A DNA stretch of 63,195 nt, filler included, from Squatina squatina (lineage: Eukaryota): the NCBI GenBank assembly GCA_031763465.1. It is 4 parts of 4 records of this genome, joined end to end, with 100 filler letters (N's around TTAATTAATTAA, not from the genome) between each part and the next. Parts side by side here need not be neighbours in the genome. Positions count along the whole stretch, not along the records: positions 1 to 20,539 come from JARFOE010000219.1; 3 more parts are not named here. One strand, given 5' to 3'. The notes under the pieces were generated by a model. It was not told the origin of the DNA, did no database searches, and worked only from the letters and a program-made list of their open reading frames with translations. Positions 9,720-59,085 of this stretch are shown here, piece by piece. Every line of letters starts with the position of its first letter. Within the stretch, counting starts at the first letter, position 1. Made by a program: the position numbers and the translations under genes.

Positions 9720-11904
9720 GTAAGTAACCAGTGGCGCACTGACACTTTTCAGCCACCAATTCAAACACAGATTCAAATCTGGCNNNNNNNNNNGTGGCAA
9801 CTTCTGTAGAATGTAGTTTCAGTTGTGAAAGGACAGAGGCTGTATGACTAAAAGAAGAACACAAAAGAAAGCCATAATTAGGCTGATAATGTTATTCACA
9901 AATCTGCCCTTCTATCTCCTGTTTGTAGATGTGCTGCTGCACTGAGAGCCTCCTGGGACGTAAAGAGAGATGTTACATATGAGATAGTACCTAGTGTTGC
10001 AAGAAAGTATACAACAGGGGTTTAAAAAGAGGCCATCATCTGTGTGAGGAGTTTTAGAGTTCGGGGCATGGTTGCACTTGGATTACTAGTTTGGATTTCC
10101 ACTTTCATTTTGTCGGAAAGATTGAAAATACATAAAATCAAAAAGAAAAAAATCCTGTAATTGCTGAAAATAAAAATGNNNNNNNNNNNNNNNNNNNNNN
10201 NNNNNNNNNNNNNNNNNNNNNNNNNNNNNNNNNNNNNNNNNNNNNNNNNNNNNNNNNNNNNNNNNNNNNNNNNNNNNNTGACGTCCTTCACTGATGTTTC
10301 CTGAATGAATCCTCCTTGTTCTGTATCTTTAGAGTTTGAAATGTAGAACTCTCAGTAATACTGTCTTTGGCAGTCACGCAAGAAAGTGTGCTATAGTCAG
10401 GGGCACATTACAGGGATGATGTTCCGTACAAGTTCTCTATTAGTTAAGAGCCATGACTAATTTGGAGTTTACAGCAGTGGAGTATCATACTAAACAGGCC
10501 ACTGTATTTATAATACTGCTGCAACCATCCTTAATTCACTCATTTGGTGATCTAGAATTTTAAAGTTGAACTTGTTGTACCATAATATAGATTAGTTTGA
10601 ATCCTCTTCATATCTTAAAAGGAGCTGATGTTATTTTGGTTTTAATATTGAAGTATATTCATAGCCCAGCTTGCAGATATGTTGTTGAATTTCATTTTTT
10701 TCTAATCTCGAGATCAAAAAGAAATTCTGGTATATCTGTGGCACACGCTCTACCGAATCTATAAATTTTTGAATTTCAAAATGCCTCCCGTTAAAATGTA
10801 GCTCTCACCAACGTATCGTTTGATTTTGTGTGGTTAAATGATGGTGTTAAAATTTTGATGATCGTTGCTGAGAGGCAGATGAATGGATGAGCTGATTGTT
10901 TTTGGCAGCCGAGTGACATTGTGGAAAGGTAATCAAAGGATTGACATTTTACCAGGCTATTGGAGCGTAGCCTCATTATTTCTTTATTAGGCCTACAATG
11001 CACCGCTTTTAGCGTTAATTGCGACTGTTCAGCTAACCTGTATAAATCACACACTGCTTCAGAAGAAACTTCCAAAGACTGCTATGTGAACCGTCAGGAT
11101 GATTGACGGTTTTGTTCCAGCCCTGAAGATATGGGAATAAATGCCTAGTATAATGGTGAATTAAAAATCTTCACGAAATTGTCTCACATTTTTACATTTA
11201 ATACAAAATGACTCCTAAAATTTAAATTAGTGTTTTTTTTTGTCTTTCAAATGTTGGCTGTTGATCATTTGCAAAGATTATATTTAATGATTGAAAGACT
11301 AGCTTGAGCTAACGTAGATGGACAATGGAATTGTACTGTTTAAAAACTCGGTTCACAACTATAACTAGCAGAGGAATGCAAACCTCAACAAGATGAAATC
11401 CTGATAATAAAAGGGCCAAGAGCTTCATGTCCTCATCAGTCCTCGTGCAGAGATTCAGGCATCAAGAATACACATCGGGAATTCGGGTTCATGGTGAGAG
11501 TTTGTGTTGGGTGCACTAAGGAAGAACATTTTCTATGCTAACAGTGCATGGCAATAGTCCTGTTAGGTCAATCTTTATACCAATAAACTGGAACACTGTT
11601 CTTACACCTCTCTCAATATGCCTGGAAAAGGATGCAAGATAAAGTTTGATGGACATTGCTTTCTTCATCTCTAACCTCCAACCTCTTCCTCTATCACAGT
11701 TTTGATCTTTATTGATATTCCGCTGGGCATTTCTCTGCTGAACTTTTCTCTTGTTTTTTTTGAGCTCTAAGAATGCCCTCCCCCCTACCCCCCAGGTTTC
11801 CTCCGGCGNNNNNNNNNNTTATCTCTTTCTCTTGCTTATTCTTTGCCAAGACCTCAAACTGTTTTAACTGCTTATCTCTTTCCAACTTTCCTTCCTGCTA
11901 CAAC

Positions 11905-15400: not shown

Positions 15401-15766
15401 AGCAACAGATAAAATGAAATGAGAATTGCTTTTGCTTCTGACACCTGCTATTTGCGTAACCATGGTAATCATCTTGAGATGGTCATGTATTAATTCGAAT
15501 GAAAGCGATCAATTGATGTACAGCACAGTTGGGGTGACACCTGCTACATTGAGGTATTAGAATCGTTGCAGTCTTTGGTACCTTAAGAAATGCTGTTAAC
15601 TGTAAAATGCTAAAAATGTAACTACTGTATTATGTTACCTGTCTGCTGAAAAAGTGCAAATATCCCAACGAGTAAATCCTGAAACTGAAGGATTGTGAAC
15701 TGCATTCGTTATATGTTCAGCAGCGGTATGCAGTGGTGTCATGAGACATAAAAATTAAACACTCAC

Positions 15767-15950
15767 CATTTCCAGACCGTTTTCCTGAGCGGTTCAGACA
15801 GACCGAGTATAAGGCATTTGCCAGATCGCCTCCACAATAGCGTTCTGTGCCCCGCTTCTGTACCGGCTGCTCTACTGTGTTTTGACCTGAGGTCATGTTT
15901 ACAGACAGTGTGAGGAGCAGGACAACCACGATGGCGCGGGCCTGTACCAT
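15767..15950 (-). CDS. Insulin/IGF/relaxin-superfamily prepropeptide, exon for signal peptide + propeptide + B-chain (A-chain exon not found)
   Basis: Acceptor tatttgttccctgtctacag directly before ATG; donor G|gtgagt (phase 1); 184 nt open. MVQARAIVVVLLLTLSVNMTSG-QNTVEQPVQ-KR-GTERYCGGDLANALYSVCLNRS-GKR-SGN: hydrophobic signal, B-chain signature CG-x2-L-x2-AL-x2-VC with C-x11-C spacing, dibasic sites on both sides. Confidence 0.88.
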
Positions 15951-17859
15951 CTGTAGACAGGGAACAAATAACATTTTACAATCCAATTCTGATTCCCCAT
16001 TGACAAGTTTGATATCAAAATCAACAAACCGTATATAATATACATGCGTAACTAAGGCCCACTTCTACTGAAAGTAGAGCAAATATCAATAAACATAAAT
16101 NNNNNNNNNNNNNNNNNNNNNNNNNNNNNNNNNNNNNNNNNNNNNNNNNNNNNNNNNNNNNNNNNNNNNNNNNNNNNNNNNNNNNNNNNNNNNNNNNNNN
16201 TGGCTAATTGGAGGGTTGAAGGAAAATTTTCAAAGAGTCCCATTTCCAGCGCGAAATTCAGCGCTTAGCGCTAGAAATGTCCAAACACGAATTGGCCGCC
16301 CTTGGCGTTTGTTTCCGTGCAGCAGGTGCCTTGGGTGCGCACTGGTGAGGTGGTTTTATCTGAAGCTGAAGTCAGCTCAATTGCTTGCTGGCTGGGCAAT
16401 GCTAGGCTGGCTTCAGGCTACACTTAGCTCCACTTGTTCCCTCTTCATTCGCAGATTGATCCACTATGGCTCCGGCAATCCCATTTTCTTTTTACTCCTG
16501 ACCTCGCTAATAAACATTTGGCTTTTAAATCTCCTTGAATAAACTTTATTAATCAAATATTATGAAAATCCAGCTAATAAGCCAGCACTGAACAGCTGCA
16601 GTTTCTCAGAGTCCATGGGTCAACAAGTGTGGACCCCTATGCAAGTGCAAAGTTCTTAACGCTGGTTCTGTTAGTTAAGTGATGTAACAATATTATAAAT
16701 GATGGATGAAATTAGGACAACTTAATTGCACTAATTGCTTTATTTAACACGAGCCTAGTGCCTTCATCTTTACTAGGTAGATGAATCCATGTAGGTATAT
16801 TGAATGGAGTTGACCTGTTTTGCTGGATGCTCTCAGAGGGCTACTACACAGCTGTAATTTGTTTTCTGTTTGCACAAGTGGATGGATGTGATTCTGTTTC
16901 GGAGCATACAACAGATGTTGTGATTATGCAAGCACAAACAAAGCGCATCTGCTATTTATTACATACAGTGGTCAGAATGGGCGCGTTCAGTGGAGGGACC
17001 ATTGCAAAGCAGGAGTGACCCTGGGAACTATTTACCTCCGAATTGGTCCTGAGCAATAAAGTTTACCTCAAAGATCGCATATTATTTTATTGCAACTGAT
17101 TCAGAGCACTTAGTTTGGTGAGTTTAAATCTGTATTTGGAATTCTGATTTAGAAAGGTGATGGGTTTGCAGTCAAGTTGGCAGTCCTAATTTTAGTGATC
17201 GTGTTAGACTATGTGTGAGTNNNNNNNNNNNNNNNNNNNNNNNNNNNNNNNNNNNNNNNNNNNNNNNNNNNNNNNNNNNNNNNNNNNNNNNNNNNNNNNN
17301 NNNNNNNNNNNNNNNNNNNNGTTACTGCAGTTCATCTTTAACAAAATCCTACCATACGACACCATGGGCAATTGTTTGAAAGTCTTTCTTTTTATTGGTC
17401 CCTGCTCCTCCCAAGAAGAACTCTTATCACAACTATGACTGTAAGACTTAATTTTTCTTACTTCTTCTCTTGCCTTAAAAATTAAATTGATAGATTTCAG
17501 TGTTGGATCATTATGTTGCATATGTGCAAAATGTGCTACCAATTCATTAATGAATGACTCTTATTGGTAGTGTCTCAGAAGAAATTAAGGGTGAGTGAAA
17601 GCTCTTCAGCAAACCAAAGTTCATCCCACTAATAAACAAACTCCTCCAGTCAACATCCAACTGAGCCTTGCATACTCTTAAAGTGATATGTCTCTGCTAC
17701 CTACCCGAGATGTTTATCATCCTCTGATAGATTTATGTTTTGCTGGTTTATACTTATGACCTCAGGTCTGACAAGTGTGTCTTACTCTGAAGCAATAATC
17801 TGCTTTTATCTGAGCCATTTAACATTTTATATGCCTCAATAAGTTCCCATTTAATTAAT

Positions 17860-20242: not shown

Positions 20243-20539
20243 CGCTGAAAAAGGGACGTTTTTGGATTACACCAGATCCATACCATGATGATGACAATAT
20301 TCAGATTGGCCGTGAGGTCAAGATTTCCTGTCAGGTAGAGGCCATTCCGCCAGATGAGTTGGCATTCTCTTGGTTCAAGAATGGACGCCCACTTCGGAGC
20401 TCGGAAAGAATGGTTATCTCCACAACAGATCCTGATGTCTCACCGGGCACAACCAGTCTGGACATCATTGACCTGAGGTTCACAGATTTTGGGACGTACA
20501 CTTGTGTAGCATCTCTAAATAGTCAGGTTGTCCCTGACA
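20243..20539 (+). CDS. MDGA2: MDGA2 coding exon, Ig4 (3' end cut by scaffold end)
   Basis: tttatcctag acceptor; (A)LKKGRFWITPDPYHDDDNIQIGREVKISCQVEAIPPDELAFSWFKNGRPLRSSERMVISTTDPDVSPGTTSLDIIDLRFTDFGTYTCVASL. Exons for Ig2-Ig3 are not visible and presumably lie in gaps. Confidence 0.96.
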
Positions 20540-33789: not shown

Positions 33790-34097
33790 TCAGCAGGAGG
33801 CCTTACCCACCTAGGGTCTTCAGGGAGCCCTTCTACCTGCACTTAAGCCAGGAGCAAGTGTATTAGGAGGCTCTGCTTCACCAAGGAGGTGGTCACAGAA
33901 CTCAGCCACCTTCTGGAACCAGCCACAGAGCAGGGCACTGCCAGTGGCCCTCAAGGTCACCATGGTCCTCAATTTTTTCACCAGCAGATCCTTCCAGTCT
34001 GGAGGAGGCAACATAGCTAACATCTCCCGGTTTGCCATCCATTGCTGCATCGGGGAGATCACAAAGGCTCTGTACTCCAGGAGAAGGGACTTCATTG
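33790..34097 (+). mobile_element. PIF/Harbinger transposase N-terminal relic
   Basis: RRLCFTKEVVTELSHLL then, after a frameshift, ALPVALKVTMVLNFFTSRSFQSGGGNIANISRFAIHCCIGEITKALYSRRRDFI (HARBI1-like helix-turn-helix region). Confidence 0.8.
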
Positions 34098-34153
34098 TTG
34101 TTCTGTATTAGGAATAAGCTTTTGCTTTATACAACTACGGCAACTCCAGTGTG

Positions 34154-36429: not shown

Positions 36430-37410
36430 CTGGTTATCGACCCTTCAGCCTTTGGAAATAGTTCCTCTTTATTTATTCTACTTAAACCTTTCATGATTTC
36501 AGACACCTCTATCAAATCTTAATTATGATCACTACCTTCTCTGCTCTTAGAACAACCCCAGCTTCTCCAGTCTATCCACGTAACTGTAATCCCTCACTCT
36601 GGGAACCATTCTAGTAAGTCTCTTCTGTACTCTCTCTCCAAAGCCTTTACGTCCTTCCTAAATTGTGGTGCCCAGAATTGGACACCGTACTCCAGCTGGG
36701 GCCAAACTAGTGTTTTATATAGGTTTAGCATAGCTTCCTGGTTTGTGTACTCTATGCCTCTATTTATAAAGCCCAGGATCCCATATGATTTATTAACTGC
36801 TTTGTTAACCTGTCCTGCCACCTTCAAAGATCTGTGCACAAACACCCCCAGGTCTCTTTGTTCATGCCCCCCTTTTAAAATTGTACCATTTAGCATGTTT
36901 TGTCTCTCCTCATTCTTCCTACCAAAATGTATCACCTCACACTTTCTGCATTACATTTCATCTGCAATGTGTCCCCACCTTCTACCAACCTGTCTATGTC
37001 CTCTTGAAGTCTATTACTATATTTCTCACTGTTTACTACACGTCCAAGTTTCGTGTCATCAAAATCGTGCCCTGCACCCTCAAGTCCAAGTCATTCACAA
37101 ATTCAGAAACAGCAATGGTTCCAGCACTGAAGCCTGGGGAATGCCACTGTATACCTCATTCCAGTCTGAAAAACAGCCATTCACCACAACTCTTTGTTTT
37201 CTATCCATTAGCCAATTTTGTATCCATGCTGCTACTGCCCCTGTTATCCCACAGGCTCAATCTTGCTAACAAGCTTAATATGTGATACTTTATCAACACC
37301 TTTTGAAAGTCCATCTGCAAAATATCAACTGCACTGCCCTCATCCGCTCTCTCAGTTACCTCGTCTCAAAACTCAGTCAAGTTAGTCAAACACGATTTGC
37401 CCTCAACAAG
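36430..37410 (-). mobile_element. CR1 LINE RT and C-terminal region
   Basis: HFGRKN...EQRDLGVFVH...LYKTLVWPQLEYGVQFWAP typical of CR1 ORF2. Confidence 0.9.
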
Positions 37411-49492: not shown

Positions 49493-50893
49493 TCAACCTG
49501 GAACCCAGCTCTGTGCTGAGGTTTGTTTAGCACCAGTGAAGGTTCCCACATTCAGGTTCACAACATTCTGAGCAGATATGAGTGAATCAAAGTTAAAGTC
49601 TAACCCATCTGCATCCATGAGTTCATTGCGAATGATGGATTCCACATCACAGTCTAAACTTCCATTAAACATATCCAAGTCCAGATCGCTGGGGAACTTG
49701 TCTTGGCCCATAACAGGAAGAGTCATGCTACCAGGATATAAGGAAGGGCCGGAGAGTGTATCAGACAATCCTATTTGCATAGATTGATTGGCAGATGACT
49801 GAAGCTGGTGCTTAGTGGAGATTGTGTTAGACTCTGTTGGTAAAGCTACATGATTCATGGAGTTTGACAAGGCACTATCGCCACTAAGTGCAGAACTCTG
49901 AGGTGGAGACTGGCGATGTAGCGGATTATGATTGGCCAGATTAGATTGGGCAGTGAAGGATGACATCATTGGATCATTATGAAGCATCAGATTTCTGTGT
50001 GAATTTTGTAAAGACACTGCTGAACTTGCCTGAGACATCAGAGGATCTGTTTGGGTCATCATGACATCACTGTGACTTAGAGAATCAGATGCAAGGAGAT
50101 CTTGCAAAGTTTGATTGCCAAAGCGAGAAATGGAAGAAAAAGTAGCTTGCTTATTTTCTTGAATGGTTTGCATGGGAGTCTGACGCAAAGCATTCAAAGC
50201 AGGTGGTCCAAATATGGAATTACTGAAACTGTTTGGGGAACCTAAACCAGAACTCTTTGAGCCATAAGTAAAACTGGAGCTCCTTTGCATGAGGCCCCCG
50301 GGTGATGACTGCTGAGCAGGAGTTAAGCTAATATTGTCTAGTAAGTCACCCATCAGATGTTCTGTCAATCCATCATTCAGGTTCATGGTTCCAGCCATGT
50401 CAGTTAACCTAGGCAGCTCAACAGTGCATGGCTTACTTGCAGTTGGGGAAACGCTGGATGGACTAGAGTACAGCATGGGAGACAGGGGGGCAGCATCGTC
50501 ATCTTGAACATTGTCAAGTTCAGGATTGGCTATTATAGGAGAAAGCCGCCCACTCAAAGTACTGGCATTTGAATTAGTACGAGAACGAAAGTCTGTCCAC
50601 GCATCAAATTCATCGCTACTGCGGGATGTTGGGCTACCAGGCCATTTTGCGTGTTGCGACGGGCTTTCAGCATTAGCTTCTTGTGCAGCTTGCAGTGCTG
50701 CCTTTTTTTTTGCTGCTCTTCCCCTGCTTTTTGCATATTTGTTGCTATTGTCCATGGAAACAGCACGCCTTCGAGGAGACTTCCCACCTTTTCCACCATC
50801 CGGATTGATCATCCACCAAGAACTTTTGCCTGTAGCTTCATTCTGTACTCTGATAAATCTGCTGTGCAGTGAAAGGTTGTGTCGAATTGAATT
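49493..50893 (-). CDS. FOXO3: FOXO3 second coding exon (C-terminal forkhead half, NLS, transactivation domain)
   Basis: ttttcag acceptor; NSIRHNLSLHSRFIRVQNE...RRRAVS and RSRTNS AKT sites...DLDLDMF...FTGAKQTSAQSWVPG*; 466 codons plus stop. Confidence 0.97.
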   Translation of the reverse strand, partial: NSIRHNLSLHSRFIRVQNEATGKSSWWMINPDGGKGGKSPRRRAVSMDNSNKYAKSRGRAAKKKAALQAAQEANAESPSQHAKWPGSPTSRSSDEFDAWTDFRSRTNSNASTLSGRLSPIIANPELDNVQDDDAAPLSPMLYSSPSSVSPTASKPCTVELPRLTDMAGTMNLNDGLTEHLMGDLLDNISLTPAQQSSPGGLMQRSSSFTYGSKSSGLGSPNSFSNSIFGPPALNALRQTPMQTIQENKQATFSSISRFGNQTLQDLLASDSLSHSDVMMTQTDPLMSQASSAVSLQNSHRNLMLHNDPMMSSFTAQSNLANHNPLHRQSPPQSSALSGDSALSNSMNHVALPTESNTISTKHQLQSSANQSMQIGLSDTLSGPSLYPGSMTLPVMGQDKFPSDLDLDMFNGSLDCDVESIIRNELMDADGLDFNFDSLISAQNVVNLNVGTFTGAKQTSAQSWVPG

Positions 50894-52399
50894 CTGAAAA
50901 GGAAAAATGAAAAATATTACTCTCATACCACGGAGGCAGAAATAGAATTTCTTTTGAAGAAAACTTACAACTGTATATTCTCTATGAAAGCAGGGAAATT
51001 AAAACACTTCATGGGTTAAACTAAGGCGACTTAAATATTTTCCTTAACACAAAGTATTAAAATTAGGGTTTCATATGGGAGAAATTTTTATTTGNNNNNN
51101 NNNNNNNNNNNNNNNNNNNNNNNNNNNNNNNNNNNNNNNNNNNNNNNNNNNNNNNNNNNNNNNNNNNNNNNNNNNNNNNNNNNNNNNNNNNNNNTATACA
51201 CCAACAGTAATAGAATCCTGGTTAATTCTATCAGCATTCATACCCATAACTGGCTCAAGTACAGCAGGTTGTCAATTCAATAAATAAGATTAGTACTCAA
51301 AGTTCAGCCAGTACAATTCTGTTATGCACTACACAAATGTCACTTCAATTACTCTGCTCACTTCATTATACATAATTAATGACTGGTCCCAAATTATATT
51401 CCTGTGTTAAATTATTCATTAGAGAAATCACTAGCTAGTGCTTTTGAGCTTTTTGTCCTTTCAGAACCCTCTTATTCAGGGAGATCATATGACAATGCTT
51501 TCAAGTAAAACCATAGTGTATCGTGCAAGCTTCACTGGACTTGTTCCAAGTTCTACACAGTACAACCATTTCACCAACAAGGCAGTCCCATTGCGCCTGA
51601 CAGAATACATTCTAATTTCTGCAGTTGTGGAAGCAATGCACACGCAGACAAAGAAAACTATGAGCTTAAGAACATTTTGCATATCTCTAGCGACAACTGC
51701 ATGCAAAGATTACCAATATTAANNNNNNNNNNNNNNNNNNNNNNNNNNNNNNNNNNNNNNNNNNNNNNNNNNNNNNNNNNNNNNNNNNNNNNNNNNNNNN
51801 NNNNNNNNNNNNNNNNNNNNNNGAATAATGGTTTTTAACCCAATGCTTTAACTGTTTCACCCCCCCACACACGTGCCCAAAAATGCTTTGTCTTGCTCTG
51901 ATTAAACCAAAAGAGAGAAAATCTGGTTAAAGGTGTATGGAGTTTAACATTGATTGGTATTATTTGCCATTTTCTTTTTGGAGGGAGGGTACAGGGAGGA
52001 TGTGTTATTCTGATGGAAACCTTTGTGCTGGCTGGCTGCCAAGAAATGGGGGTGGGGGAGAGAGAATATACATGTGGATTTCAAAGACATGACTTGCATG
52101 TTTCAGCTTGGACACTTACCTGGTGTCATCTTAAACTACCCGGTTAATTAAGCTAATGAAGGAAATACGCCAGCATTACACACATTTCCACCTCCTGTAA
52201 CAAGTTTACGTCGAAATCGTGGGTGTCCCGGAACAAGTTATCCTAGGTTGTCCAGCGGTCACAAAAGTCAAATTGTAGACAGTTTACTCACTGGATCCGT
52301 AGCTTTATAATATATTTGGTTTCTCGACTGTGAGTGGAGCATTAAAGTGCTAAAAGTGTAAGCGGATGAGTGCAAGGCTCTAATAATAGGGCGGTTGCT

Positions 52400-54140
52400 G
52401 TACCTTCCAGCCAGCCGAGCTGTTGCTGTCTCCTTTATCCTTGAAGTAGGGCACAGAGCGGACCATCCAGTCGTAAATCTGCGACAGCGTCAGCCGCTTG
52501 TCCGGCGAGCTCTCGATGGCTTTCGTGATCAGATCCGCGTACGACATGTTGCCCCAGGCGTTCCTGCGGGACGAAGCTTTCCGCTGCTGGGGCCCTGCAC
52601 CGCCGGCTGCCGCCAAGCCGAAGCCCGGGGCGCCGGGGGAATGCGAGGAAGAGGACGGCGAGGACGGGGAGCGGGAGCCCCTAGGGACACCCGCCGCCGG
52701 CTGCTTCAACAACCCGTCTCCGCCACCTAATCCCCCGCCTGATGCTGCCTGCGGCTCTGGCTCTCCCCCGCCGGCCGAGCCCAGCAGCAGGCCGGACTCG
52801 GAGCCGCCGAGCTCGTCGTCCTCCGCTGCCTCCTCGGCTTCTTCTTCGGGAATCATGTCGGAAGCCTCACTCGAGTCGTTCTTGCCCGAGGAGCCGGAGG
52901 CGGGGAAGTCGGGCCGGGGTAAAGGCCAGGTGCAGGAGCGGGGCCGGCTCTGCGGCTCGAAATCCGGGTCGATGTCAACCAGAGGAGCCACGGCTTCTTC
53001 CATGTCCGCTCAGCCACCCTTCCCCCAAAAGAATAAAACAAATTTGGTGCAAGAATAATAATAATTTGCAAATAAAATACTGTCAGTGCGGGGAAGGGGG
53101 GAGGGATTTAAAATAATGGCAATATTTAAAAAAAGCTGGTGGCGGCGGGTTTAAAGGGGCTGAACGCTGCCCTCTGTCCGCCCCAGCTGGCGCCCCGTCC
53201 GCCTGCAATGAGCCGCCGCCGCTTCCATGTGGCTACACTGAGAAAAGGTTACAGCGCCGGGCCGCCGCCTGATTGGCCGCCCGCTGACAGCAGCGTTCCA
53301 TCGGGGGGCGGGGCCGGCCGGCTGGCGCCGCTGCCATTGGCCGCCGCCGGGGCGGAGCCTTGAATACATTAGCCGGCCGGGGAAATCCCCTTCCCGCGGG
53401 GACATCCACCCATCCGTCCGTCCATCCATCTCACCTGCCTGCCTGCCTGCCTACCCGCCCCGCAGGGNNNNNNNNNNNNNNNNNNNNNNNNNNNNNNNNN
53501 NNNNNNNNNNNNNNNNNNNNNNNNNNNNNNNNNNNNNNNNNNNNNNNNNNNNNNNNNNNNNNNNNNNNNNNNNNNNNNNNNNNNNNNNNNNNNNNNNNNN
53601 NNNNNNNNNNNNNNNNNNNNNNNNNNNNNNNNNNNNNNNNNNNNNNNNNNNNNNNNNNNNNNNNNNNNNNNNNNNNNNNNNNNNNNNNNNNNNNNNNNNN
53701 NNNNNNNNNNNNNNNNNNNNNNNNNNNNNNNNNNNNNNNNNNNNNNNNGAGAGACACACACTCATAGTCGCTCTCCCCACCTCCCAACCGCGAAACAAAG
53801 TTTCGAGACGCCAGAGCGCAACCCAGCTTTGCTGTCGGGCTCGCCCAACCTCCGCGTCGCGCTCATTGGATCAATCGGGCCTCGCGTCGGCACCTCTTGC
53901 ACTCGACGGGTGGGTGAGTGAGGCGGACAGTCGCCTGATGGGCCGAATGGGGGAGCCGTCGGTCGCCTGCGTCACGAAGGCCGCTCGACCACCAGGTTAG
54001 GTTGGCGAGTTGAAGCACATTGCGTCATTCTCTTTGCAAGAGCGCGTGACTTCGACTCCTATTGGTCCGGTGCGAATGTCACTCAAGCTAACAGCTGGCG
54101 CTGATCGGCGGGGTTGTTGCCCACTCTTCGCCGTTCTAAG
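52400..54140. promoter_or_regulatory. FOXO3 CpG island / promoter
   Basis: Dense CpG against an AT-rich background; ATTGG (CCAAT on the FOXO3 strand) near 53272, 53336, 53865 and 54061; CRE-like TGCGTCA near 53968 and 54021; GC box GGGGCGGGG near 53305. Confidence 0.8.
52404..53003 (-). CDS. FOXO3: FOXO3 first coding exon
   Basis: [28 protein letters not shown] (AKT site)...[34 protein letters not shown]...SSAGWK then gtacag donor; 200 codons, phase 0, giving 666 aa when spliced. Confidence 0.97.
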
Positions 54141-58424: not shown

Positions 58425-59085
58425 AACAAGAACAGAGAGACCTGGGGGTGTTTGTGCACAAATCTTTGAAAGGTGGCAGGACAGGTTAACAAAGCAGTTA
58501 ATAAGGTATGTGGGATCCTGGGCTTTATAAATAGAGGCATTAAGTACAAAAGCAAGGAAGTTATACTAATGCTATATAAAACATTAGTTCAGCCCCAGCT
58601 TTGTGTCCAATTCTGGGTGCCACACTTTAGAAAGGACCTGAAGGCTTTGGAGGGGACACAGGAGAGATTTACTGTAATGGTTCCAGGAATGAGGGATTAC
58701 AGTCACATGGACAGATTGGAAAAGGTAGGGTTGTTTTCCTTAGAGCGTAGAAGGCTAAGAGCAGATTTGAAAGAGGTGTTTAAAACCATGAAGGATCTAG
58801 ATGAAGAAAATAAAGAGAAACTGTTTCCAACGGCTGAAGGGTCAATAACGAGAGGGCACAGATTTAAGGTGAAAAAGATCCAGAGGCAACAAGAGGAAAA
58901 GCTTTTTTATGCAATGGGTGGTTAGGATTTGAAATGCACTGCCTGATAGGGTGGTGGAAACAGATTCAGTAGTGGCTTTCAAAAGGGAATTGGATAAATA
59001 CTTGAAGGAGAAAAAGTTGCAGGGATTTGGGGAAGAGCTGGCCGAATGGTCTCCTTCTGTGCTGTCCTATTCTAAGATTCTATAA
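58425..59085 (+). mobile_element. 5'-truncated CR1 LINE
   Basis: RDLGVFVH...LYKTLVQPQL...FSLERRRLRADL...TRGHRFK, ending in a TTCTGTGCTG..ATTCTAAGATTCTAT tail. Confidence 0.9.

Follow-up and report, generated by a model that had tools for sequence, protein, structure and literature searches.

A probable insulin-side hormone gene of Squatina squatina, represented by a B-chain exon with an N-terminal spacer and flanking dibasic sites

The window, i.e. the whole stretch of 63,195 nucleotides of Squatina squatina DNA that was analysed, consists of 54 pieces, most of them 0.5-3.4 kb long, which are separated by runs of N, mostly of 100 bases. An insulin-like coding exon of 184 nt (15767..15950, minus strand) lies alone on a piece of 1,968 bases between N gaps. 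It starts with an ATG, ends in phase 1, and encodes a predicted signal peptide, a spacer, a B chain, and the beginning of a C peptide.

Exons of several other genes are found elsewhere in the window. An Ig-domain exon of the MDGA family is located at 20275-20526 (plus strand; best PDB match MDGA1, E 3e-31), and its divergence presumably points to the paralogue MDGA2. An Orange-domain exon at 44531-44755 (plus strand) is near-identical to HEY1 (PDB 2db7, E 1e-30). Two FOXO-family exons (49496-50998 and about 52383-53000, minus strand) are in the right order and about 1.4 kb apart across gaps, so close that intron sequence appears to be missing from the assembly. Their C-terminal match to a FOXO3 chain makes FOXO3 the probable identity; beyond this match, the paralogue assignment is our assumption. 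The MDGA-family, HEY1, and FOXO exons mark the host as a vertebrate. Three open reading frames (33815-34108, plus strand; 36597-36950, minus strand; 58470-58922, plus strand), which by their look we take to be remnants of transposases or LINE reverse transcriptases, had no Pfam match at an E-value of 0.1. Because pieces carrying genes from different loci stand side by side, neighbourhood within the window is unreliable as synteny.

The insulin-like exon is directly preceded by a splice acceptor (pyrimidine tract plus AG, 15951..15968, minus strand) that abuts the ATG, which implies an upstream exon, probably a non-coding one. At the other end, the splice donor GTGAGT (15761..15766, minus strand) follows; the junction ATG|GTGAGT agrees with the consensus at 8 of 9 positions and ranks first among the 112 GT sites on the minus strand of the contig. 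The predicted exon for the remaining C peptide and the A chain is absent from the window. The insulin gene has an intron within the C peptide, and relaxin/INSL genes have a phase-1 intron after the B chain, as does the exon described here. With an intron before the ATG and another near the start of the C peptide, the gene agrees with the three-exon plan of the insulin gene, for which a non-coding first exon is described in the available text of PMC8051583.

The exon product, P0003, comprises 61 residues. Residues 1-22 (15885..15950, minus strand) are predicted to form a signal peptide, based on hydropathy (the core is hydrophobic, with a best 7-residue mean of 4.07) and on a -3/-1 site after Gly22, a rule-of-thumb assignment, as three earlier sites also comply with this simple rule. 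The signal peptide is followed by an N-terminal spacer (propeptide) of nine residues (15858..15884, minus strand), a putative Lys-Arg convertase site (15852..15857, minus strand), and a predicted mature B chain of 22 residues (15786..15851, minus strand), which corresponds to B2-B23 in insulin numbering. Next come a Gly that is a possible amide donor (15783..15785, minus strand) and a second Lys-Arg site at the B/C junction (15777..15782, minus strand). The B chain contains Tyr B6, Cys B7, Gly B8, Asp B10, Leu B11, Ala B12, Leu B15, Tyr B16, Cys B19, and Leu B20, and G-K-R follows. An earlier note on this DNA had described the region 15884-15777 (minus strand), and its translation was reproduced exactly. 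Its description did not contain the N-glycosylation sequon N53-R-S (15786..15794, minus strand) at the end of the B chain, directly 5′ of G-K-R, which neither of the homologues treated below possesses.

Members of the insulin superfamily (PF00049) have a B chain with two cysteines in C-G-x10-C spacing behind a signal peptide, and P0003 has this arrangement. The match of P0003 to the Pfam Insulin model was weak: with the B part alone, it reached 18 bits (E 0.0058), short of the 23-bit cut-off. The bare core C-[GS]-x10-C is found 12 times in the window versus a mean of 12.6 in simulated sequences, and is thus not significant. The core flanked by dibasic sites, [KR]R-core-[KR]R, appeared in 4 of 200 dinucleotide-matched simulations, and [KR]R-core-G[KR]R in none of 200. 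These patterns were composed post hoc, when the site was already known, so that homologues are the stronger proof that the B-chain exon is real.

When 1.84 billion representatives were scanned in full with phmmer, four matches were retrieved. Two of them were spurious, i.e. a tick repeat/lipase protein (P0004) and a TPR protein (P0006). The other two, P0005 and P0007, are true homologues, both of them ENA singletons. P0005 is a genomic read-through with 52% identity to P0003 over 61 residues; its exon ends at the same S-G-N-G with the same donor, and the first intron codons are common to both. P0007, with 51% identity over 45 residues, is a near-complete precursor of 108 residues that lacks most of the signal peptide and has a Pfam Insulin match with an E-value of 1.6e-14. 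The family comparison thus comprises three sequences. In all three, a Gly (at -1 of the predicted signal cleavage site) is followed by a spacer of exactly nine residues that ends in E-Q-x-V-x and then by K-R; the B chain, which has Tyr at B6, begins five residues upstream of Cys B7 and is succeeded by K-R-S. The chief argument for a real propeptide is that the spacer length and the two K-R sites are conserved among sequences with about 50% identity. Other positions vary: B10, B16, and B20 are Met/Arg, Gly/Asp, and Trp/Gln in the homologues, and Asp B10, Tyr B16, and Leu B20 of P0003 are thus unconserved. In P0005, the B helix (residues 39-52) is rich in Met, and neither Leu B15 nor Tyr B16 remains in it; its signal peptide and spacer are well kept, and P0005 may be a fast-evolving paralogue.

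Word-indexed protein searches yielded homologues for 0 of 81, 1 of 171 (P0007), and 1 of 2 (P0007 itself) candidates. They missed P0005 and are therefore lossy, so that the lack of a named orthologue in the protein and DNA searches carries little weight. In DNA collections, 0 of 472, 0 of 27 (viral), and 1 of 589 candidates were retained; the last one (L001) was then rejected, as it lacks both cysteines and lies inside a long unrelated open reading frame. Exact look-ups of four window translations gave no match (0 of 4).

An A-chain exon was not found in the window by motif scans or by tblastn and phmmer with P0007 against 2,610 six-frame segments (best phmmer E 0.52). The motif C-C-x3-C-x7-C at 10016 (minus strand) was rejected as an A chain: its spacing is wrong, it has no dibasic site, its phmmer E-value is 6.9, and it has no Pfam match. 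A lone exon on a 1,968-base contig, with N gaps on both sides and no A exon, could be a pseudogene remnant, or could stem from contaminating DNA of an invertebrate parasite or prey in this fragmented assembly. The precursor layout is indeed like that of invertebrate insulin-like peptides, arthropod clusters are present among the Atlas look-alikes, and no repeats common to the contig of the exon and other pieces of the window were found. However, the reading frame and the splice sites are intact, the functional residues are conserved, and even the first intron codons are shared with P0005. In addition, the contig is similar in composition to the other pieces (GC 0.39, trinucleotide correlation 0.947). 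We regard a pseudogene or a contaminant as very unlikely. The exon 15950-15767 (minus strand) is instead probably part of a real insulin-superfamily gene, namely an overlooked hormone gene on the insulin side of the superfamily.

The proposed processing of the precursor would start with signal cleavage after Gly22. The spacer would then be removed at V-Q-K-R|G, a site that resembles the C/A junction L-Q-K-R|G of proinsulin in the alignment with the PDB match. Cleavage at G-K-R would be followed by trimming by carboxypeptidase E and possibly by amidation to Ser-amide, and a downstream exon outside the window would supply an A chain like that of P0007. The layout put forward in the earlier note, i.e. 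a nine-residue spacer and a short B chain flanked by dibasic sites, recurs in all three sequences, and its two-chain character agrees with P0007, in which K-R precedes a terminal A chain. The C peptide of P0007 is long and flanked by dibasic sites, and no D/E extension follows the A chain. The C/A site of P0007, R-T-K-R, fits the furin consensus, and processing in the regulated pathway would thus not be required.

The expectation that KR and GKR would both be conserved was borne out in part: both Lys-Arg sites are invariant in the three sequences, whereas the Gly, shared by P0003 and P0007, is missing from P0005. Gly followed by a dibasic site is the signal for the action of a convertase, carboxypeptidase E, and PAM, and the G-K-R at its end makes an amidated B chain possible in S. 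squatina. As only one of the two homologues keeps the Gly, amidation is no rule for the family, and we judge the chances of a Ser-amide in this species to be about even. P0007 has a second G-K-R four residues past the first (residues 44-51), which could free a tiny amidated peptide or lengthen the B chain and which makes the true position of the B/C cut uncertain. The matching position in P0003 is the end of the exon.

These observations are also compatible with a real gene that is processed in another way. The sequon lies three residues upstream of G-K-R, and a glycan at N53 could hinder processing there; such a glycan, or a weak sequence context, might block the first G-K-R, so that the B chain would be longer or lack the amide, or the product would in part be single-chain. 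The absence of the amidation Gly from P0005 and the second dibasic site of P0007 point in the same direction, and the teleost insab genes, according to the part of PMC8051583 at hand, are a precedent for unprocessed insulin paralogues. Alternatively, with Ala B12 and without Phe B24, the product could be a weak ligand or an antagonist of insulin-family receptors. However, all three sequences, whose overall identity is about 50%, have the first B/C Lys-Arg-Ser, an invariance that speaks for cleavage at this site being under selection. We consider such deviating processing or weak ligand function unlikely, and slightly favour cleavage of an insulin-superfamily precursor at Lys-Arg sites to a two-chain hormone, which would most likely be a ligand of a receptor tyrosine kinase of the insulin receptor family and not of a relaxin-type GPCR.

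With respect to the receptor, the earlier note correctly stated that P0003 lacks both the relaxin motif R-x-x-x-R-x-x-I/V and the insulin/IGF motif G-F-[FY], and that Leu occupies B20. Its conclusion that the receptor is unknown and that known motifs are missing was overstated, because Gly A1, Ile A2, Val A3, and Tyr A19 are all retained in the A chain of P0007. These are invariant site-1a residues of insulin and represent 4 of the 10 invariant residues listed in the accessible part of PMC12796670. By the same list, the B chain of P0003 retains 2 of 6 invariant B residues (B8 and B11) and has Tyr, Ala, Ser, and Gly in place of Leu B6, Val B12, Gly B23, and Phe B24. The A chain of P0007 has the spacing C-C-x3-C-x8-C, starts with G-I-V-E-E, and contains Pro A10. 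The best PDB matches of P0007 are proinsulin (E 3e-5), IGF-1 and IGF-2 (E about 1e-4), and the A chains of bombyxin and DILP5; relaxin is absent from the best 60 of its 83 matches. In a predicted structure of P0007, helices are placed at B and A, with low confidence (mean pLDDT 45.6). With this low-confidence model, Foldseek gave mini-proinsulin as the best match (E 2.6), and VIA-align gave unrelated chains (best Z 3.7), with IGFs at Z 3.5.

The B chain of P0003 is most similar, among PDB chains, to an insulin variant that carries Asp B10 and Ala B12. Ala B12 reduces the affinity of insulin. The second-best match is 7mqo_B (E 0.011), an insulin B chain of 22 residues with Glu B10 and Leu B20, which we take to be a venom-inspired hybrid insulin. 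With this truncated engineered chain and with the cone-snail venom insulins, P0003 shares a B chain that ends near B22-B23, an acidic B10, and Leu B20. In the available text of PMC6372279, cone-snail insulins without B24-B26, including Con-Ins K1 (Leu B15, Leu B20), activate the human insulin receptor, and in modelling of Con-Ins K1, the pocket of Phe B24 is occupied by Leu B15, Leu B20, and Leu A23. The same text gives less than 0.1% activity for human insulin without the B-chain C-terminus and a clearly weaker activity of Con-Ins K1 than of the aromatic forms. These agonists of receptor tyrosine kinases are, in contrast to P0003, venom mimics or engineered molecules, and the likeness is at most convergent. 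Moreover, B10, B16, and B20 differ in both homologues, so that the resemblance to a "mini-insulin" may be particular to this species or due to chance.

Contact with the receptor would be made by A1-A3, A19, and the B helix, and a bulky side chain at B20 might take the place of the absent Phe B24, in line with the modelling of cone-snail insulins. The affinity may be low, and agonism is a prediction. On these grounds, with the A-chain argument borrowed from P0007, we hold an insulin-family kinase receptor to be fairly probable.

A fast-evolving offshoot of the relaxin/INSL group could also have lost the relaxin motif and might bind a GPCR of the RXFP type, or have no receptor at all, like INSL4/INSL6 or a stingray peptide. 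Relaxins are likewise two-chain peptides with a short B chain that terminates at a dibasic site, and the very divergent B helix of P0005 suggests fast evolution. A stingray relaxin-like peptide without the motif is described in the available part of PMC551602 and is glycosylated according to a title cited there, and the B chain of P0003 has a sequon. However, the motif as defined in that source is absent from all three sequences, the A chain of P0007 (G-I-V-E-E, Pro A10, Tyr A19) is of the insulin/IGF and not of the relaxin type, and the B helix with its Ala/Leu character is closest to insulin chains. A relaxin origin thus appears unlikely, and an affiliation with the insulin side remains our preferred reading.

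A comparison with vertebrate insulin shows common features as well as differences. The order signal-B-C-A, the dibasic sites, and the intron before the ATG exon are shared, as is a B helix C-G-x10-C with Gly B8, Leu B11, Ala B14, Leu B15, and Tyr B16. The A chain of P0007 has Gly A1, Ile A2, Val A3, Leu A16, and Tyr A19 in common with insulin, and also Pro A10, which is present in 98% of ray-finned insulins according to the excerpt of PMC12796670. In contrast to insulin, P0003 has the additional nine-residue spacer and KR before the B chain (found in all three sequences, with the signal site placed by rule). It lacks B24-B30, and thus FFY and the dimer surface, as well as His B10; it has Tyr B6, Ala B12, and Leu B20, and possibly an amide. 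The A chain of P0007 differs by an extra Ser at its start and Trp at A21.

IGF-1 and IGF-2 share the acidic B10 with P0003, and their A domains align with G-I-V-E-E-C-C of P0007. They are single chains with a short C region, G-F-Y-F, and D/E domains, whereas P0003 has no G-F-[FY] and has KR at the B/C junction, and P0007 has no D/E extension. Unlike the IGFs and the amphioxus insulin-like peptide, which have D/E domains in the accessible text of PMC4361685, P0007 has a long C peptide flanked by dibasic sites and ends after the last Cys.

Protostome insulin-like peptides (locust LIRP, bombyxin, DILP5) consist of two chains, of which the B chain is short and lacks the aromatic triplet, as proposed here, but the gene of P0003 sits in a vertebrate assembly. 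Among the Atlas look-alikes of P0007, LIRP ranks third (score 0.90). Its precursor contains a cleaved co-peptide between the signal peptide and the B chain; a literature search for this locust co-peptide found nothing. By analogy, the gene may work most like the short-B-chain peptides of invertebrates. Judged by its sequence, it is a member of the insulin superfamily that departs from defining features of insulin, of IGF, and of relaxin.

No description of such a vertebrate gene was found in the literature, which was available in part and included PMC12796670, PMC4362833, PMC12702675, PMC8286064, PMC3310001, PMC4361685, PMC8051583, PMC551602, PMC9409083, PMC6372279, and PMC13311285; the sequence files of surveys or subscription papers could contain one. 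In the accessible sections of reviews, the vertebrate family consists of insulin, the IGFs, and the relaxin/INSL peptides (PMC8051583, PMC12702675, PMC12796670). A more far-reaching reading would be that of a third, overlooked insulin/IGF branch of vertebrates, which cartilaginous fishes would have retained and mammals lost. This branch would comprise a natural monomeric "mini-insulin" that is processed in the invertebrate style, activates a receptor of the insulin family without B24-B26, and is a candidate ligand of INSRR. We consider this combination speculative and rather unlikely. In the portion of PMC9409083 at hand, INSRR is an orphan receptor without a known peptide ligand, and only orthologues of IR and IGF1R have been detected in fish. 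If the reading were true, an additional lineage conserved on the insulin side would alter the account of how insulin and the IGFs arose from an ancestral peptide. It would also provide a vertebrate case of receptor binding without the B24-B26 triplet, of relevance for the design of monomeric fast-acting insulins, and a testable candidate ligand for INSRR. The best Atlas look-alike cluster of P0007 (score 0.91) is mostly chordate and is named only "insulin family protein", suggesting that relatives of this gene may already be present in the databases.
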